Below are positions 29,730 to 38,743 of a stretch of DNA of 64,000 bases, piece by piece (positions within the stretch are counted from its first letter, which is position 1; each line of letters opens with the position of its first letter). A model generated the notes under the pieces. That model was given only the letters and a program-made list of their open reading frames with translations. It was not told the DNA's origin and did not search any database. The stretch is from Escherichia phage vB_Eco_BCPEco_001, in sequence record PV295200.1; one strand, written 5' to 3'. The translations under genes and the position numbers were made by a program.

Positions 29730-30739
29730 TGAAAACAGTAATGAAAAGCTATTTTGGTAGCCATCTTTATGGAACTTCTACCCCAGAATCTGATGTAGAT
29801 TTTAAAGAAATCTTTGTTCCTCCTGCTCGCGATATTCTTATCGGAAATGTCAAAGAGCATATGAGTAAAAACACTAACAATACATCATCTAAAAACACTA
29901 AAGATGATATTGACCATGAACTATACAGTCTTAAATATTTCTTTAAATTAGCAGCAGATGGTGAAACTGTAGCATTAGATATGCTTCACACTCCACCTGA
30001 ACTAGTGGTTAAATCTGATTTGCCTGATGTGTGGAAGTTTATTCAAGACAACCGTTCTCGTTTTTATACGACTAACATGAAATCATATTTAGGATATGTC
30101 CGCAAGCAAGCTTCTAAATACGGTGTCAAGGGTTCTCGTTTGGCCGCATTACGTGATGTATTGAAAGTAGTTAATCAAATCCCTGAGCAATGGGTTGATT
30201 ACCAAGAAGACGGTTCCATTAAGCAGCGTCGAACTAAAGTTGAAGATATTAAGCATCGTCTTCCAGAGAACGAATTCTGTGAATGGGTATTCCATAATCA
30301 TGAGAAAACAGGCCCACAAACGTTCTACACTGTGTTGGGTCGTAAATATCAAACAACACTTTCTCTTATTGAGCTTAAGCAATCTTTGAATAAACTTGAT
30401 GCTGAATACGGCGAACGTGCTCGTAAGGCTGAAGCGAATGAGGGCATTGACTGGAAAGCTCTGAGTCATGCTTGCCGTGGTGGACTCCAACTATTGGAAA
30501 TTTACAAAACTGGCGACTTGGTTTACCCACTTCAAGACGCTCCATTTATTCTCGACGTGAAGTTGGGTAAACATCCATTTAAAACCGTTCAAGAGTTTTT
30601 GGAAGATGTGGTCGATCAAGTAGAAGCAGCATCTACTGAAGCTTCTAAGAACGGTATGCAGCAAAAAGTAGACATGGGTTTCTGGGATGACTTCCTTGAG
30701 AAGGTCTATCTTGAAAACCACCGAAGTTATTATAAATGA
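29726..30739 (+). CDS. predicted nucleotidyltransferase (pol-beta superfamily-like)
   Basis: 337 aa; N-terminal FGSHLYGTSTPESDVDF fits the hG[GS]x9-13 Dh[DE] nucleotidyltransferase signature; candidate third acidic residue in VALDMLH. Confidence 0.5.
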   Translation: MMKTVMKSYFGSHLYGTSTPESDVDFKEIFVPPARDILIGNVKEHMSKNTNNTSSKNTKDDIDHELYSLKYFFKLAADGETVALDMLHTPPELVVKSDLPDVWKFIQDNRSRFYTTNMKSYLGYVRKQASKYGVKGSRLAALRDVLKVVNQIPEQWVDYQEDGSIKQRRTKVEDIKHRLPENEFCEWVFHNHEKTGPQTFYTVLGRKYQTTLSLIELKQSLNKLDAEYGERARKAEANEGIDWKALSHACRGGLQLLEIYKTGDLVYPLQDAPFILDVKLGKHPFKTVQEFLEDVVDQVEAASTEASKNGMQQKVDMGFWDDFLEKVYLENHRSYYK

Positions 30740-30741
30740 TA

Positions 30742-30767
30742 GGGAGCCTTCGGGCTCCCTTTTTTTA
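30742..30767 (+). terminator. rho-independent terminator
   Basis: gggagcc ttcg ggctccc followed by ttttttt. Confidence 0.65.
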
Positions 30768-30771
30768 TTTC

Positions 30772-30819
30772 AAAAATTTTTCACAAAACGGTTTACAAGC
30801 ATAAAGCTTTATGGTACTA
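30772..30819 (+). promoter_or_regulatory. early promoter with conserved leader (promoter-plus-stem-loop type cassette)
   Basis: tttttcacaaaacggtttacaagcataaagctttatggtactatacaactatcaactgatacggatttggagaataaaATG; leader near-identical to 59026-59107. Confidence 0.6.
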
Positions 30820-30854
30820 TACAACTATCAACTGATACGGATTTGGAGAATAAA

Positions 30855-31823
30855 ATGAAAACTGTAACTATCAATAAGGGTATCTACTTTGGTAAAGAAA
30901 TCTCTGGAACTTTTGAGCTCTTAGGCGAATGGTTCCCAGATAATGCTCCGGTGGATGCACAAGGAGATGGTAAAGTTTTTGTTGAAATTGACGGTAAGCG
31001 TCGCGGTGTTTGGGTTTACAAATCAGACATTTCATATGATGGTGTAAAAGTTGAAGAAGTTAAAGAATCATATGAAGATATGAAAACCCGCATTAATAAA
31101 AGATTTAATGTTATGGGAATGATGACGAATGGTATTATTAACGGAAACATTCGTTCATTAATTATCTCTGGTGCGGCGGGTATTGGTAAAACGTATTCTT
31201 TAGATAAAGCTTTAAATAAAGCAAATGATATTGGATACATTGAGTATAAAAGCATTAATGGTAAAATCTCAGGTATCGGTCTTTATGAGCAGCTCTGGAA
31301 TAATCGTGAAGAGAATTCTGTCCTTTTGATTGATGATGTGGATGTTTTCTCTGATATGGACATTCTTAATCTTCTGAAAGCTGCTCTGGACACTGGAGAG
31401 ACCCGTAAAGTCTGCTGGAGCACTGCATCTTCTTACTTAGAAGAAAAAGGCATTGACCGTGAGTTTGAATTTAAAGGAACAATTGTTTTTATCACAAACG
31501 TTGATATTGACCGCGAATTAGACCGTGGTACTAAACTTGCTCCACATTTACAAGCATTAGTGTCCCGCTCAGTTTATTTAGATTTGGGTGTTCACACTAA
31601 TGAAGAAATTATGGTCAGGGTTGAAGATGTTATTCTTTCAACCGACATGATGCAAAAGCGCGGTCTTTCTGATGAAGAAACTTATAAAGCATTATCATGG
31701 ATGAAAGTCAATGTTAACCGTTTACGTAATGTTTCACTGCGTACTGCACTTTATCTTGCTGACTTTATTATGACCGACAAAAACGGTTGGGAAGAAATCG
31801 CTGAAACGGTATTGTTAAAATGA
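30855..31823 (+). CDS. P-loop ATPase (AAA-like)
   Basis: 322 aa from MKTVTINKG; Walker A GAAGIGKT, Walker B VLLIDDVD; track ORF 30687 is an upstream extension through the promoter. Confidence 0.6.
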   Translation: MKTVTINKGIYFGKEISGTFELLGEWFPDNAPVDAQGDGKVFVEIDGKRRGVWVYKSDISYDGVKVEEVKESYEDMKTRINKRFNVMGMMTNGIINGNIRSLIISGAAGIGKTYSLDKALNKANDIGYIEYKSINGKISGIGLYEQLWNNREENSVLLIDDVDVFSDMDILNLLKAALDTGETRKVCWSTASSYLEEKGIDREFEFKGTIVFITNVDIDRELDRGTKLAPHLQALVSRSVYLDLGVHTNEEIMVRVEDVILSTDMMQKRGLSDEETYKALSWMKVNVNRLRNVSLRTALYLADFIMTDKNGWEEIAETVLLK

Positions 31824-32539
31824 AAAAATATTTTACTATCTATAAAACTGAAATATTAAATTTAAAGACTGGCGTTAAGAAATATTATTATGGTCGACAT
31901 ATAACTAATAATATCAATGATTCGTATGTTGGTAGTGGAAATTATATAGAACGTGTAAAAGTGTCAAATGACCACATATTATCAAAAACGGTTTTAGAAG
32001 TTTTTGATAATTATGATAAAATGGTACAAGCTGAAATATTATATATCATGGCAGGTAAATTGAAATATGGAAAAAACTGTGTTAACCTGTCATACGGGGG
32101 TGAAGGAGGAAAGGTTGCAGATGAAACTAGAATAAAATGCAAAAAGCATTCTATAAATTTATGGAAAAATCCTAATCATATACAGCATATGAAGAAAAAG
32201 ATGAAAGAGGTCACATCCACGCCGGAAGCTAAATTAAACACTTCAATAAAAACTTCGCAACGATATAAGGACCCGGTTTTTGTTAGAAAAGTTAGTAATA
32301 TTATTAAAAAGAAACTAAGCAATCCTGCAGTAAAAGAAAAGCATATTAATGGAATTAAAGCTGCAAAGCGTTCTCATTTAACTATATGGCAGTATGAAGA
32401 TGAATTATTCGAGCTTTGGAAAGAAACTAAATGTGGATGGAGAAAATTTACAAAGGAAGCTATAAAACACGGATATCCAAATGAACCGTATCGTAGTATG
32501 GTATCAACTTTTCAGAAAAGACATTTAGAAGAATCCTAA
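31820..32539 (+). CDS. GIY-YIG homing endonuclease (Seg-like)
   Basis: 239 aa; KKYYYGRHITNNINDSYVGSG GIY-YIG-type N-terminus; basic C-terminal DNA-binding-like region; ATGA-coupled to the upstream ATPase. Confidence 0.6.
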   Translation: MKKYFTIYKTEILNLKTGVKKYYYGRHITNNINDSYVGSGNYIERVKVSNDHILSKTVLEVFDNYDKMVQAEILYIMAGKLKYGKNCVNLSYGGEGGKVADETRIKCKKHSINLWKNPNHIQHMKKKMKEVTSTPEAKLNTSIKTSQRYKDPVFVRKVSNIIKKKLSNPAVKEKHINGIKAAKRSHLTIWQYEDELFELWKETKCGWRKFTKEAIKHGYPNEPYRSMVSTFQKRHLEES

Positions 32540-32984: not shown

Positions 32985-33512
32985 ATGAACGCTAAAGATA
33001 TTTTCAACCTGGTAAATTACAACGATGGTAAATTTAAATCAGAAGCACAAAGCAAGTTCTTTAATGACATCTCAATTGGAGGTGAAATCACGGTTGATGG
33101 AGGACAAATTTACAAATCCCGTTGGAATTGGATCGTTATTATTGATGAGATTGGTATTGTAGAAATTTACAAGAATACGAATAAAAATCGTACATTACAC
33201 TGGTCTCGTGATACTAACGAACAGTACAAAAAGGATAAAGCATCTAAATTATCTCGTGTAACTCAAGAAGATATTGAGTTCATCAAGAAAGATATTTTGA
33301 TGTATGATAACTTAATTGCTGAAGAGCAAGCTGTTATTGATAAATTTGATGAGATTAAAGCTTCTCGTGAAATTCCTGATTTTATGAAAGAATCAGTAAA
33401 TGAACGATACACTCTCATTTCAGAGCGTATTGAAACTTACAAAAAGCAAAGAGCTGAACGCCAGAATACTCTTCGGAAATTTGAAGAACGGTTAAAGACG
33501 GTACTCGCATAA
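32985..33512 (+). CDS. hypothetical protein
   Basis: 175 aa; charged helical C-terminal half. Confidence 0.5.
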   Translation: MNAKDIFNLVNYNDGKFKSEAQSKFFNDISIGGEITVDGGQIYKSRWNWIVIIDEIGIVEIYKNTNKNRTLHWSRDTNEQYKKDKASKLSRVTQEDIEFIKKDILMYDNLIAEEQAVIDKFDEIKASREIPDFMKESVNERYTLISERIETYKKQRAERQNTLRKFEERLKTVLA

Positions 33513-33567
33513 CCGCTTTATACCAAGGATGGTATAATGGTTCTAAGCCCTTTTAATTGAGATTATT

Positions 33568-33969
33568 ATGAAACAGTTGATAATTAAAAGATTGAATTTA
33601 TTGATATGTTGTTTATGTATAGTAATTGCATATGGTTATTACGCAATTAATGATTATATGCATTATAAAGATTATGATGTTACTGTAGTTAATACCCTTA
33701 CAGGAACTCAAGGAAAGGGGTCTAGTTTATCGTTTATTGCCGTATATGAACTCAAAGACGGTTATAGATTTAGCGAATATATTTCCCCAGAGATGTATTC
33801 ATCAATAGAAAAAGGCGATAATATTACTGTAAGTTTACGTCCTTTCGACGTAAAACAGACATGGTTTGATAATATTGTTTGGTTCTTTGGAATGGCATTA
33901 GTTCAATCTATATGTGGTACTTATATAGTTTGTTCAATCTTATTCCGCGTAATTGGTAAAATTGAGTGA
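33568..33969 (+). CDS. membrane protein
   Basis: 133 aa; hydrophobic segments at the N- and C-termini. Confidence 0.5.
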   Translation: MKQLIIKRLNLLICCLCIVIAYGYYAINDYMHYKDYDVTVVNTLTGTQGKGSSLSFIAVYELKDGYRFSEYISPEMYSSIEKGDNITVSLRPFDVKQTWFDNIVWFFGMALVQSICGTYIVCSILFRVIGKIE

Positions 33970-33976
33970 GGAAAAT

Positions 33977-34864
33977 ATGTCAGTAGTAATTAATAATATC
34001 AATGCAGTAATTAAATCTTTAGTTAATAAAAAATTAAATGAATGGACTGTACTTCGTCGTGGAGAGCCAGATAAATTTTTTCATAGATTTAACCCAACTT
34101 TGGATTTGAATGCTATTGACAGAGATGTTCATGCTGAAATTTTAGATAAATTTAAAGTTGATATTGGGTTTGGATTAGAAAAACATTTACAGCGAACAAA
34201 TGGGTCTGGAATGAGTTTATCTAATCGCATCATGAAAGCCCTTAATAAAATTGGAGCGTTGTCTCGTATTAACGCGAGTGAAATCCTTCGTAATTATAAT
34301 AAAGGATATGACCTTTATGGTCGACTAATGCCGAAATTGTCATTCGATCAAATGATTGCGGATTTGTGGGAAAATCAACGACGATTATTAGCATTAGGCG
34401 CTCGATTGGCTAAAGGTCTAGATAAACAAATGATTTTTAAAACTAATAATACAGAAGACCTTAAATGCTTTAAATTTAGTACTCGTGGAGATGATTATTA
34501 CGTCAGAGCTCACTCTACAGATTATGTCAATATGGGTCATCATCTCTGTTTAGCTTTTGAAATTTTAAAAGAAGCTGGAACATTAGAATATGTGTCTGGT
34601 GCTAAATGCCCGATTGGTTCAAGTTGTATTTTAATTTATCGCCCGGATGAATCCAGTTCAACTAAATTGTCTACAAAACCTGCGCCAGTTCGTAGTAACG
34701 AAAAACATTCTGAGCAAATTGATTATTTTAATAAGCAAATTGAAGAGCTGAATATTTCTATTCAACAGTATGACGATGAAATTTTCAGACTATCTGGACT
34801 GAGTAGTAAAGCTAAATCTGAGCGTGAAAAGTTAATTAAAATTGTTGATTTACTTAAATCTTAA
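33977..34864 (+). CDS. hypothetical protein with C-terminal coiled coil (tandem family member 1)
   Basis: 295 aa from MSVVINNINAV with SD GAGGAAAAT; C-terminal 45 aa heptad-repeat tail. Confidence 0.5.
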   Translation: MSVVINNINAVIKSLVNKKLNEWTVLRRGEPDKFFHRFNPTLDLNAIDRDVHAEILDKFKVDIGFGLEKHLQRTNGSGMSLSNRIMKALNKIGALSRINASEILRNYNKGYDLYGRLMPKLSFDQMIADLWENQRRLLALGARLAKGLDKQMIFKTNNTEDLKCFKFSTRGDDYYVRAHSTDYVNMGHHLCLAFEILKEAGTLEYVSGAKCPIGSSCILIYRPDESSSTKLSTKPAPVRSNEKHSEQIDYFNKQIEELNISIQQYDDEIFRLSGLSSKAKSEREKLIKIVDLLKS

Positions 34865-34872
34865 GGAACACC

Positions 34873-35895
34873 ATGAAAACTCGTTCTCAAATTGAAGATA
34901 TGGTTCGTAATGCCAGCTATAATCGTGATGTTATGACATTTTTGTGTGAAAATAATTTAGACCTTAATAAAGTTAATTGTTCCATTCACGCCTTTAAACA
35001 TCTAAACAGCAGTGAATGGGTGCGTAATTTTAATGAAGCGGGGTATATTACACAAATGACTGCTCGCGAGCAGCTCACCGATTTCTGTAAAACTATTGAT
35101 TATAAAAATCCTCTATTTGTTCAAGGCGTTGGTCAAAGTAAGGTCGATTTATCATCTGGATTTTTCAATCCAAATCATTATCGTCTTGAATGGAGATTTA
35201 TTGCTCTATTCCGTAAACAATTAAAGCAAATTTTGTCGACGGCTAGTCGATTAAAAGGTTCTGACATTAACTTAAAGAACCTGAAATTTGATGGTTATAC
35301 TCTTCAGATGGAAGTAAGACCATTAAAAGAAAATAATAGAACTGCACGAATTAGCTTTAAACCTAATACAAAAAATTCTCTTTCAATTTGCGAATGCCTT
35401 AAATCGCAGTTGACAGAAGCATTTAAGTATATGGATGTTGTTGCTGCAGTTCAGTCTAAGATTTTACCTCATTTTGAGCGAAATTGGGAACATACAACAA
35501 CGTATGAACTTGATATGATCGTTTCATTTAAATATGATTTTTTGAGAAAGGATGAAGTCCCGCAAGAGAAAAAGCAGGAAGTGCAAGATAACTTAAATTT
35601 ATCTAATTGCTCATCAAACGATCCTAAATTTTGGATGTATAGCTCAGGTAATAAAGATGCATGGAAATTCAATAAAGTGAATTTTCTTCCTATTGAAAAT
35701 CCGAGTCTTAAACCTGTTGAAAAATGGCACGCGGATGCGATTGAGAAGTCTATCAAGGCAGTAGATGATGAACTCGTTAAAGCGACCAATGAAGTGCTAG
35801 AAGCTGAAAAGATGCTAGAAAAAGCTCAAGAAAAAGTCAAAAATCTCACGAAGCAACGTTCTAAACTGAACAACGCACTAAATGCACTAAACTAG
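34873..35895 (+). CDS. hypothetical protein with C-terminal coiled coil (family member 2)
   Basis: 340 aa; C-terminal tail LEAEKMLEKAQEKVKNLTKQRSKLNNALNALN. Confidence 0.5.
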   Translation: MKTRSQIEDMVRNASYNRDVMTFLCENNLDLNKVNCSIHAFKHLNSSEWVRNFNEAGYITQMTAREQLTDFCKTIDYKNPLFVQGVGQSKVDLSSGFFNPNHYRLEWRFIALFRKQLKQILSTASRLKGSDINLKNLKFDGYTLQMEVRPLKENNRTARISFKPNTKNSLSICECLKSQLTEAFKYMDVVAAVQSKILPHFERNWEHTTTYELDMIVSFKYDFLRKDEVPQEKKQEVQDNLNLSNCSSNDPKFWMYSSGNKDAWKFNKVNFLPIENPSLKPVEKWHADAIEKSIKAVDDELVKATNEVLEAEKMLEKAQEKVKNLTKQRSKLNNALNALN

Positions 35896-35952
35896 TTTAC
35901 TTCGCCACAAGGATGTGGTATAATGTTCTTACTTTCTACTGAGGAGATTAAT

Positions 35953-36954
35953 ATGACTCGTAACGAATATATCAAATCATTCAATAGCGTTATTGATGAT
36001 AAAGTTAAACCTATGTCTAGTCAGAATAGTGTTCTTTCTATTATCAATCAGTGGCTCAACAATACTGATGCAAGTATTGTTTCTTCCAGCAAATTTATTC
36101 ATGAAGTTCATAAAATTTCTAGTCGTGTAGATAAAGATGATATTAAGGAAACCTTTAAAGGGTCTCGTCTTCTTTCATATTTAGTTAATCAAGATATTCT
36201 TAGTAAATTTGGGAAAGAAATTAAACGAACTAAAGATGTAGTAGGATACAATTGGTTCGGAGATGTTAATTCTTATCATCTTAATAATAAAGAAGACCCT
36301 GAGAATATTTTTACTCGTCGTTGGGTTAGTAATTTCAGGCTTTTCAAGAAGCAACTTCTAAAATCAGCTTCTAAATTATGTTATGGCGATTATCGTCAAA
36401 TTCATCCTTTGGCTTCTGATATGATTATCATAAAAGAATATGAACTTGATAAAAATAAAGCAGCTATTTTTGTGAATTATGAATTTTTTACACCAGAAGC
36501 TAATCAAAAGAACATTAATAAATTTTTCTCAATTGCTAGTGATATAACTCGTCAGTTAGAGACTGCATTACTTTGTATGGAAACAGTAGAAAATATTCAT
36601 ACTTATCCTTTTAAGAATATATGCGGTTGGGAAGGATATAAAATTGTAGTTAGTCTTCGTGAAGTAAAGTGTGCGTACTCACCGACTGATAAAGAAATTT
36701 ACCAACAAAAATGTGATGAAATTGTGAATACTCCTAAAGAAGAAACTACCCTTGAGGAACTAATGGAATGTCTTGACGATTCACCTGAACCGATAGAAAT
36801 TCGTCCAGAAGTTATTGCATTAGAAAAAGCTTATAAAGAAGTTCTAGAAATTTCTAATAAAGCACAGAAAGAATATGAGCAGGCTAAAAGGATTTGGGAA
36901 GAATCTGTTAATCGCCTGGATCGTCTTGAACAAGCTTTACAGTTAATTAAGTAA
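35953..36954 (+). CDS. hypothetical protein with C-terminal coiled coil (family member 3)
   Basis: 333 aa from MTRNEY with SD GAGGAG; own early promoter (gtttac...tggtataat) at 35894-35922; the track start 35923 lies in the promoter. Confidence 0.5.
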   Translation: MTRNEYIKSFNSVIDDKVKPMSSQNSVLSIINQWLNNTDASIVSSSKFIHEVHKISSRVDKDDIKETFKGSRLLSYLVNQDILSKFGKEIKRTKDVVGYNWFGDVNSYHLNNKEDPENIFTRRWVSNFRLFKKQLLKSASKLCYGDYRQIHPLASDMIIIKEYELDKNKAAIFVNYEFFTPEANQKNINKFFSIASDITRQLETALLCMETVENIHTYPFKNICGWEGYKIVVSLREVKCAYSPTDKEIYQQKCDEIVNTPKEETTLEELMECLDDSPEPIEIRPEVIALEKAYKEVLEISNKAQKEYEQAKRIWEESVNRLDRLEQALQLIK

Positions 36955-37008
36955 AATTTAAAGCCAAGGATGGCTCGGAGTATAAACCATTAACCAAGTG
37001 AGAAGAAC

Positions 37009-37938
37009 ATGAAAACTCGTAAACATTATATTGATTATTTTGACAGTCTTATTACTAAACATCGTGATTATCAGATAGGACACAGAGCAGTAATCAATAA
37101 TATTCTTCGTGATTTCCTTCAGTATGTTGGCCAGGAAAATCATATCTGTAAAGATACTCAGAACGCTTATTCTCATTCGTTAGGCAATTTACTTGAATGG
37201 TTTAAACGTTCTCGTATGTTATCTTCTACTGTAGCTCGTGATAACATTGAAAACTTTATGAAGCCGAGCTTCATTAAATCTGCGACATCTATAACCGATT
37301 TGGTTGAATTTACTATTGTTAACGATGTTAAAAAGACCCATTTGGCTGATTGGTTATCTACCATTCCCGAAACTAAATTTGCTGATAAATTCGCTTGTCA
37401 ATTCAATGACCAAGTGAATATGCTTTTTAAGCATGCTCGTAAACTATTTACCGCGGGCGATGACCGTACAAATACAGTTCATGTTAAGGATTGGGTTATT
37501 GCTGATGAAGTAACACACAAGCCAGGTGGTTCATCAGTATTAATTAATATCCAGGTTCCTTATTATTACTCACGTAATCTCGGCACCATGACAGCTAGAG
37601 AAATTAATAAGCACAACAAAATTATTCGTTCGTTGTCTTATAAACTCTGCACGATGGTGGAGATGATGGACGTAGTGGAAATGTATGACGAAACCGAAGA
37701 TAATGGTTCAATGCTGTACAGTTCACGCATTCTAATTAAACTGAAGAACCCTAATACATATAAGCAAGTTGTAAAAGAACCTAAAGCAGAAAAGGCTGAT
37801 AATCTGAGTGAAGAACGCGAATATCTCAATGCTCGTTTGATTGAAGTTGAAGCCCAAATTGCAGAACACACCAAATTGTTAAAAGCTCTTAATGCAAAAG
37901 CAAATGGTTTACGCAATGCTATTGAGGTATTGAAATGA
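37009..37938 (+). CDS. hypothetical protein with C-terminal coiled coil (family member 4)
   Basis: 309 aa; C-terminal tail [42 protein letters not shown]. Confidence 0.5.
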   Translation: MKTRKHYIDYFDSLITKHRDYQIGHRAVINNILRDFLQYVGQENHICKDTQNAYSHSLGNLLEWFKRSRMLSSTVARDNIENFMKPSFIKSATSITDLVEFTIVNDVKKTHLADWLSTIPETKFADKFACQFNDQVNMLFKHARKLFTAGDDRTNTVHVKDWVIADEVTHKPGGSSVLINIQVPYYYSRNLGTMTAREINKHNKIIRSLSYKLCTMVEMMDVVEMYDETEDNGSMLYSSRILIKLKNPNTYKQVVKEPKAEKADNLSEEREYLNARLIEVEAQIAEHTKLLKALNAKANGLRNAIEVLK

Positions 37939-38249
37939 AAAAGCGTCTATTAGAAGACATTGCAGCTTCAAGTAATTCTAGTCTAATTAAAATTATTATG
38001 GCTGGTGAAGAAGACAATCTGGAAATGCGTGGAAAGATTTATGGTTGTGATGATTATAGCCCTCCTGTTAATTGGGATTCTGTAATGGTCATGGTTGAAC
38101 GTCGTGAAAGGGCTTCTAAAAACGTTCTTAATTGCCCTGAATGTGGAACTGAACAGGTTCAATTGATTCATTGGCAGACTAGTATTCTTCGTTATAAATG
38201 TCGCCATTGTAAACACCGATTTGACCGAGAAGAAAATGACAAAGCGTAA
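37935..38249 (+). CDS. small zinc-ribbon protein
   Basis: 104 aa; CPECG...CRHCKH pattern. Confidence 0.5.
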
Positions 38250-38478
38250 AGAATATATGGAGACTGCTGAAAAGGCAGTCCGTGAATTAGCAATAGCTTA
38301 TTATAATGAACATGGTAAATTTCCTGATAGATACAGCGTGCTTAAATCTGCTTTAACTCGTTCATATAAAAATATGCTATCAGAAGTAAGTGATATTATA
38401 TACAAACATAAAGAACAAACGGGCCAAAGTCTTGATTACGACGAGACTTTTAAACAAGTACTAGGAATTAAGGAATAA
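38236..38478 (+). CDS. hypothetical protein
   Basis: 80 aa from an ATG ([15 protein letters not shown]); the track start at 38221 is a TTG. Confidence 0.45.
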
Positions 38479-38479
38479 T

Positions 38480-38743
38480 ATGTTTAAAGTATATGGTTAT
38501 GATAGCAACATCCATAAATGTGTGTATTGCGATAATGCAAAACGTCTTTTGACCGTGAAGAAACAGCCGTTTGAATTTATCAATATTATGCCGGAAAAAG
38601 GTGTTTTTGATGATGAGAAAATCGCTGAGCTTCTGACTAAACTAGGTCGTGATACTCAAATCGGCTTAACAATGCCTCAGGTATTTGCTCCTGATGGAAG
38701 TCATATTGGTGGATTTGACCAATTGCGGGAATACTTTAAATGA
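38480..38743 (+). CDS. nrdC: thioredoxin/glutaredoxin NrdC
   Basis: 87 aa; MFKVYGYDSNIHKCVYCDNAKRLL with CVYC redox motif, matches T4 NrdC from memory. Confidence 0.85.
   Translation: MFKVYGYDSNIHKCVYCDNAKRLLTVKKQPFEFINIMPEKGVFDDEKIAELLTKLGRDTQIGLTMPQVFAPDGSHIGGFDQLREYFK

Follow-up and report, generated by a model that had tools for sequence, protein, structure and literature searches.

Four tandem nrdC genes of a T4-like Escherichia phage encode head-linker-tail proteins and form a candidate family of early anti-defence factors

What do four adjacent genes of similar size, each ending in the same kind of amphipathic helix, contribute to a T4-like phage? The question is raised by positions 33977-37938 of Escherichia phage vB_Eco_BCPEco_001 (record PV295200.1), of which one strand of 64,000 nt was analysed (the window). 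The four open reading frames (ORFs) are orthologues of T4 nrdC.6, nrdC.5, nrdC.4 and nrdC.3. In the reading that we favour, and hold to be probable though not firmly so, they make up a tandem family of early anti-defence proteins in which the head would set the target while the tail would act as a common oligomerisation or docking module.

The four genes and their common C-terminal tail

The window comes from a T4-like phage, a Tequatrovirus. Positions 33500-38500 showed 98.9% DNA identity to Shigella phage vB_Shso_BCPShso_001 (approximately 5 kb compared), and the same region was matched by 732 phage records, which with few exceptions belong to T-even phages of Escherichia, Shigella, Yersinia or Salmonella. 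The ORF list holds four neighbouring ORFs of 295, 340, 343 (likely 333) and 309 amino acids (aa), all on the + strand, as in the initial annotation, and spaced by 8-54 nt. Comparison gene by gene with the annotated T4 genome gave the order nrdC.6-nrdC.5-nrdC.4-nrdC.3, with identities to the T4 proteins of 95%, 91%, 92% and 60%, respectively. The initial annotation had placed the array in an interval between rI and nrdC holding unnamed T4 ORFs; both points had to be corrected, since the ORF directly upstream (33568-33969, 133 aa, a membrane protein) is NrdC.7 and not rI, and the four genes already bear their names in T4.

The nrdC.6 orthologue (33977-34864, + strand, 295 aa) comprises a head of approximately residues 1-225, a linker and a tail of approximately residues 251-295; it matched the profile phrog_2257 over its full length (1-295, E 3e-151) and its ATG at 33977 has a GAGG ribosome binding site (RBS) seven bases upstream. 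The nrdC.5 orthologue (34873-35895, + strand, 340 aa) is a full-length match (1-340) to Pfam DUF7235 (PF23882), with 416.8 bits against a cut-off of 30. The nrdC.4 orthologue (35953-36954, + strand, 333 aa from its likely start; the ORF opens at 35923 and then has 343 aa) and the nrdC.3 orthologue (37009-37938, + strand, 309 aa), a paralogue of nrdC.4 that is confined to Tequatrovirus and has several alleles, both matched phrog_1435 over their full length (E 1.7e-166 and E 1.3e-115, respectively).

The translations end in VDLLKS, ALNALN, ALQLIK and AIEVLK, as had been quoted. Heptad periodicity was assessed by shuffling the residues of each 42-aa tail and scoring the best register by its hydrophobic load at positions a and d, and it exceeded that of the shuffled tails in NrdC.6 (P = 0.002), NrdC.5 (P < 5e-5), NrdC.4 (P = 0.0037) and NrdC.3 (P = 0.0015). 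The a/d register at the C-terminal end is identical among all four tails, and alignment from the C-terminus of all members and genera revealed the common motif [QK]R..L..A[LIM]..L[KN]. The shared amphipathic heptad segment of the initial annotation is significant against shuffled tails, and the coiled-coil registers, on whose relatedness the proposal had been staked, proved common to the four proteins, as did the end motif.

Among the four ORFs the heptad helix measures 43-60 aa. It occupies the last 45 aa of NrdC.6 (34727-34861, + strand, ending EREKLIKIVDLLKS), where it is kept across genera, aa 281-340 of NrdC.5 (35713-35892, + strand, ending QRSKLNNALNALN), the C-terminal end of NrdC.4 (36805-36951, + strand, ending NRLDRLEQALQLIK) and the last 43 aa of NrdC.3 (37807-37935, + strand). 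AlphaFold2 (AF2) monomer models were produced for NrdC.4 and NrdC.5; the tail was predicted as an unbroken single helix 295-342 in NrdC.4 (pLDDT 80.7) and as a helix 281-339 in the low-confidence model of NrdC.5, in both cases preceded by a low-confidence linker. The final 13 residues of the NrdC.4 family, NRLDRLEQALELLK, hardly vary across genera, the heads being only about 45% identical. As this near-invariance extends to residues that would point outward from a coiled coil, it would indicate a surface specific for a partner and not a generic zipper. Judged from its sequence, the tail is a predicted coiled-coil oligomerisation or docking module.

A putative T4-type early promoter, GTTTACTTCGCCACAAGGATGTGGTATAAT (35895-35924, + strand; consensus GTTTAC-N14-GTGGTATAAT), lies in front of nrdC.4; it matches the sigma-70 consensus at 10 of 12 positions and carries a TG extension, in a promoter scan that was overall not above chance. 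An early promoter is annotated at the equivalent site in phage ASO78A. Because the promoter overlaps the first ATG of the nrdC.4 ORF (35923), because the ATG at 35953 has a GAGGAG RBS in front of it and because cross-genus alignment showed that NrdC.4 homologues in other genera all start at MTRNEY, the real start is most likely 35953, which would give a protein of 333 aa.

Relatedness of the head domains

Pairwise BLASTP among the four proteins was not significant except for NrdC.4 and NrdC.3, which shared 25% identity over 226 aa (E 3e-7); hhalign of the tail-less alignments of this pair gave 97.9% (E 3.6e-13), and the paralogy of these two heads is settled. To place all four, the syntenic region was taken from 25 loci of several Straboviridae genera (1161 ORFs in total) and searched iteratively with hidden Markov models (HMMs) after the last 65 residues had been cut from queries and database, so that the tails could not drive the result. 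Searches started from NrdC.3 or NrdC.4 recruited first a set of single-copy homologues, here termed the bridging family, namely Serratia X20 gp085, Edwardsiella PEi20 gp089, Klebsiella Kp122_0066, a 332-aa protein of Enterobacter fGh-Ecl04 and Yersinia fHe-Yen9-01 gp94. All NrdC.5 and NrdC.6 sequences followed, then Acj61 p120 and Yen9-01 gp111, and no other ORF among the 1161 was recruited. As an independent check, every protein recovered in this way carries a heptad tail.

Tail-less hhalign comparison with the bridging family gave 88.8% for NrdC.6 (E 2.5e-6), 61.9% for NrdC.5 (E 7.6e-5), 95.7% for NrdC.4 (E 9e-9) and 50% for NrdC.3 (E 1.6e-4), the matches covering colinear stretches of the head. 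Alignment of the superfamily revealed three colinear head motifs, R/G..s..l....A...L..FG, F......f..n...iL....rL..Gd.R and l..Al..M..V.

When the NrdC.4 model was compared with BFVD using Foldseek, a 308-aa protein of Yersinia phage fPS-65 was retrieved (E 5e-8), annotated 'thioredoxin, phage-associated' and read here as NrdC.3-like, together with NrdC.6 of JS10 (E 1.9e-5, probability 1.0, TM 0.43/0.51). Further matches were uncharacterised proteins of 280-374 aa from T4-like phages of Acinetobacter, Pectobacterium, Enterobacter, Erwinia, Klebsiella and Serratia, the adjacent Acj61 genes p120 and p121 being among them. The top matches of the NrdC.5 model fell within the NrdC.4 set, Serratia CBH8 (E 2e-6) and Erwinia Cronus being common to both; this result serves as corroboration only, the model being poor because its homologue input was limited to sequences of at least 81% identity. 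The order of secondary structure elements is the same in the two models, that is, a helical N-subdomain, a long helix, beta strands, a helix, a beta hairpin, the linker and a long helix.

The four heads are read as one fold with three colinear conserved motifs and as diverged tandem paralogues, the inclusion of NrdC.5 and NrdC.6 in the family being likely. The proposal of a diversifying paralogue family with a shared C-terminal module was in this way upheld by HMM, hhalign and Foldseek links between the heads, and the profile-profile search that had been recommended tied NrdC.3 to NrdC.4 directly and NrdC.5 and NrdC.6 via the bridging family. The 'divergent N-terminal domains' of the same proposal stood in so far as the head is the more variable part; they are not unrelated domains, since they have one fold and three motifs in common.

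Sequence searches of PDB returned no match for any of the four proteins, and Pfam, NCBIfam and PADLOC yielded nothing informative beyond DUF7235. The heads are basic (pI 8.3-9.2), and an acidic DNA mimic of the Ocr type was rejected on this ground. The thioredoxin/glutaredoxin label was also rejected, there being no such Pfam match at E <= 1 and the predicted fold being different; the 'thioredoxin' naming of the array ORFs in GenBank is unsupported and is regarded as an annotation artefact.

At the DNA level no repeats link the paralogues apart from an identical 12-nt start of nrdC.5 and nrdC.3, ATGAAAACTCGT (MKTR), and no sign of recent gene conversion was seen. The 12-nt start sits within a 19-nt repeat (34866-34884 and 37002-37020) that takes in part of the RBS region. 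Two genes upstream of the array, NrdC.8 (32985-33512, 175 aa) likewise has a significant heptad helix at its C-terminal end, KKQRAERQNTLRKFEERLKTVLA; since the head-domain HMM searches did not recruit NrdC.8, its tail is best considered analogous or only distantly related to those of the array.

Distribution, variation and neighbouring genes

An exhaustive search of 1.84 billion representative proteins with a profile of the NrdC.4 alignment returned seven clusters and no link to NrdC.5 or NrdC.6. The source-named matches of the word-indexed search were mostly T-even phages, and the few with bacterial names lay on contigs whose length, about 165-172 kb, is that of a phage genome. The NrdC.3-6 superfamily is phage-only and, within these searches, confined to T4-like phages (Straboviridae), with no cellular relatives. 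Using tblastn against 50,697 phage genomes, NrdC.6 was found in 741 records, NrdC.3 in 653, NrdC.4 in 555 and NrdC.5 in 548. The comparison of presence and absence that had been suggested revealed one to four copies per genome depending on the genus: Tequatrovirus has four, Gaprivervirus and Dhakavirus have three and are without nrdC.3, and one or two copies occur in Winkler-, Kanagawa-, Jiaoda-, Karam- and Tegunavirus and in Acinetobacter phages. The loci fetched from Aeromonas and Vibrio T4-like phages had no array beside nrdC.10. Where a genus has only one tailed member, a tail-less ORF of about 256-272 aa (ENGATVYGSLPKAVP...FFKRPS), conserved but unrelated by HMM, lies directly upstream (L018 14257-15075, L019 14190-14993, L020 13660-14430, L023 12811-13584 and L024 12630-13421).

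Within Tequatrovirus, identities were 95-97% for NrdC.6, 89-97% for NrdC.5, 87-96% for NrdC.4 and 59-98% for NrdC.3, while the neighbours NrdC.10, NrdC.9, NrdC.8, NrdC.1, NrdC and gp49 were 98-100% identical. Between genera NrdC.5 retained 22-29% identity versus approximately 84% for NrdC. The dN/dS ratios (NG86) were 0.14-0.29 for the four genes versus 0.01-0.09 for most neighbours, and were equally high in the neighbours NrdC.7 (0.28) and NrdC.2 (0.27). The four genes are characterised by faster protein evolution and not by gene-wide positive selection.

In NrdC.3 the divergence is mosaic. Comparison of its alleles of the window and T4 showed that the first 70 residues and the tail are 75-100% identical and residues ~80-260 only 30-65%, and the alleles fall into at least three classes. 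Among natural phages, deletions, a chimera and split genes were also encountered. Phage ACG-C40 (L026 4805-5216) carries a deletion from codon 71 of nrdC.5 to the tail of nrdC.3, and a 299-aa protein on contigs of ~167 kb (P0119) is a chimera, NrdC.5(146-268)::NrdC.3(127-end), with loss of nrdC.4. The nrdC.4 gene is split into two ORFs (193 and 158 aa) in a G8-like phage (L009 7001-8033), and in T2 it is present as a 155-aa fragment, apparently split (BFVD A0A482N302 and A0A2Z5WKJ2); these forms suggest pseudogenisation. In NrdC.6 of Shigella phage Sf25 (P0120, 378 aa) about 83 residues, spanning the end of the head and the linker, are duplicated internally in tandem. The nrdC.6 gene of the T4 reference (NC_000866 12067-12894, - strand, 275 aa) has lost its tail through a frameshift inside the tail, while another frame still encodes the intact tail ISIQQYDDEIFRLSGLSSKAKSEREKLIKIVDLLKS. 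The frameshift is either a true mutation of the laboratory strain or an old sequencing error. The genes of the array are dispensable, variably present and fast-evolving accessory genes.

Some neighbouring genes deserve mention. The AAA-type ORF at 30687-31823 is NrdC.10; its reading frame extends 56 codons upstream beyond the start that its homologues use (~322-326 aa), its Pfam matches to AAA/STAND-type NTPases are all sub-threshold, and its conservation extends to 1311 phage records, jumbo phages among them. Between nrdC.10 and nrdC.9 lies an ORF of 239 aa (31820-32539) that matched the homing endonuclease PHROG 314 (E 4e-30); its start overlaps the nrdC.10 stop, and T4 has no gene at this place. 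Downstream of the array, NrdC.2 (37935-38249, 104 aa) is a zinc-ribbon protein with two CxxC pairs, is as variable within Tequatrovirus as NrdC.3 (58-97% identity, dN/dS 0.27) and showed a sub-threshold match to the Lar restriction-alleviation family (E 0.007).

A candidate role in early counter-defence

The initial annotation recognised no function for the array; a function has, however, been published for T4 nrdC.5, whose product is 91% identical to that of the window. According to Srikant, Guegler & Laub (eLife 2022, PMC9391042), an evolved T4 clone with deletions was unable to infect strain ECOR17, deletion of host dsr1 restored infection, and cloned dsr1 protected MG1655 against the deletion clone; T4 nrdC.5 supplied in trans restored plaquing of the deletion phage on cells bearing Dsr1, a SIR2 defence protein (ECOR17/EcDsr1, WP_029488749.1). 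The same paper terms nrdC.5 an early gene. In a 2026 preprint (PMC12803255), E. coli Dsr1 is reported to have a TPR sensor with homology to the Avs7 sensor and to respond to a phage major capsid protein as trigger. In a full-text literature search, PMC9391042 was alone in assigning a function to any of nrdC.3-nrdC.6, and in its accessible text NrdC.5 is neither related to NrdC.3, NrdC.4 or NrdC.6 nor described as having a shared tail. A mention of nrdC.8 in a DRT1 paper was judged irrelevant.

The reading as early counter-defence proteins is based on the probable early expression, the dispensability, the phage-only range, the lineage-specific expansion, the mosaic divergence concentrated in the head and the existence of an anti-Dsr1 member. 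Each protein begins with a basic head of alpha+beta type (about 225-245 aa), continues through a floppy linker (25-60 aa) and closes with a single amphipathic heptad helix of 43-60 aa, at the end of which stands [QK]R..L..A[LI]..LK. The proteins would be made right after infection and each head would bind and block a different host anti-phage protein, the target of NrdC.5 being presumably the SIR2/TPR sensor Dsr1, while the common tail would serve to multimerise the heads, which would lend them avidity against oligomeric defence complexes, or else to attach them to a partner common to all. By analogy with DSAD1 and DSR2, NrdC.5 could plausibly bind Dsr1 directly, and for NrdC.3, NrdC.4 and NrdC.6 we infer an anti-defence role.

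Several observations weigh against this interpretation. The experimental link to defence concerns one of the four proteins, for which the T4 allele was used in a single complementation experiment. NrdC.5 and NrdC.6 are tied to the family indirectly, via the bridging family and Foldseek; direct hhalign of NrdC.6 with NrdC.3, NrdC.4 and NrdC.5 was not significant, that of NrdC.5 with NrdC.4 gave 13-47% only, and the model of NrdC.5 has a poor pLDDT of 54.8. In the NrdC.4 tail several core positions are occupied by Y, W, S or A, which are not canonical coiled-coil residues, and the gene-wide dN/dS of the four genes is below 1.

Other explanations were considered. The four proteins could be early regulators that act in host takeover or bind nucleic acids, and not inhibitors of defence proteins, NrdC.5 escaping Dsr1 indirectly, for example via the timing or the amount of the trigger; the basic heads and the probable early timing of the genes would agree with this, as would PMC9391042, which holds no report of direct NrdC.5-Dsr1 binding, and we consider it unlikely, although the strongest of the competing accounts. 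Slightly less probable still is that the four make up a single hetero-oligomeric early complex with one function, assembled through the tails, the anti-Dsr1 effect being a property or side effect of the complex. The identical tail register and end motif and the adjacent, co-oriented genes speak for such a complex, while the copy number of one to four among genera, the natural phages without or with broken nrdC.5, nrdC.4 or nrdC.3, the loss of the NrdC.6 tail by frameshift in the T4 reference and the restoration of infection by plasmid-expressed NrdC.5 alone (PMC9391042) speak against it.

Finally, the four might not be paralogues, unrelated heads having independently gained similar tails or the likeness of the tails being merely compositional. 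The single significant BLASTP pair and the failure of NrdC.6 in direct hhalign comparison with the others would fit this idea. It is nevertheless highly improbable, because the iterative searches with tail-less sequences recovered exactly the tailed proteins and nothing else, the hhalign matches to the bridging family are colinear, three head motifs are common to the heads and Foldseek ties NrdC.4 to NrdC.6 and to an NrdC.3-like protein.

An extension of the counter-defence reading, which we regard as speculative and improbable, is that heads of different kinds mix in oligomers through the common tail and thus form a combinatorial anti-defence particle with multiple targets; the composition of such a particle would change as paralogues are gained, lost or swapped. 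Equally conjectural is the variant in which the proteins are virion-fold decoys made early, heads with the fold of a conserved virion protein (the resemblance to tail terminators is weak) pre-occupying the TPR-type sensors of Dsr1 or Avs-like proteins.

T4 is the best-studied phage, and roughly half of its genes are without an assigned function. The genes of the array are known as T4 ORFs and the function of nrdC.5 is published; what appears new within the searchable literature is the union of four separately filed families into a Straboviridae-wide superfamily of head-linker-tail proteins, which nominates NrdC.3, NrdC.4 and NrdC.6 as anti-defence candidates. That natural T-even phages show allele swaps, deletions and pseudogenes suggests a contribution of the array to setting host range, which would be relevant to the choice and engineering of therapeutic T4-like phages. 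Hundreds of GenBank records name these proteins 'thioredoxin', a label that needs correction.

With regard to known systems, the likeness to thioredoxin is limited to the gene-name prefix, which derives from the neighbouring nrdC. The tail terminator/completion proteins (6tba_4A, 8q01_M and 3fz2 gpU) have no counterpart of the helical subdomain, linker and tail, and membership of the gpU-like tail terminators was rejected on account of the low fold scores and of the probably early genes lying outside the structural module. DSAD1 of Bacillus phage SPbeta resembles NrdC.5 in being a phage protein that counters a SIR2-type protein-sensing defence enzyme, DSR2, while it differs in host, target (DSR2 versus Dsr1) and architecture (PMC10973363 and PMC10981675); the comparison is one of analogy only. 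The closest relative is T4 NrdC.5, the anti-Dsr1 factor of PMC9391042, of which the second ORF of the array is the direct orthologue at the same array position; the activity was described for the T4 allele. ORFs 4, 3 and 1 are the orthologues of T4 NrdC.3, NrdC.4 and NrdC.6; these fall in PHROGs 1435 and 2257 and, by precomputed assignment, in Pfam PF26897 and PF26899, and had been filed as separate families and are here joined with DUF7235 into one superfamily.

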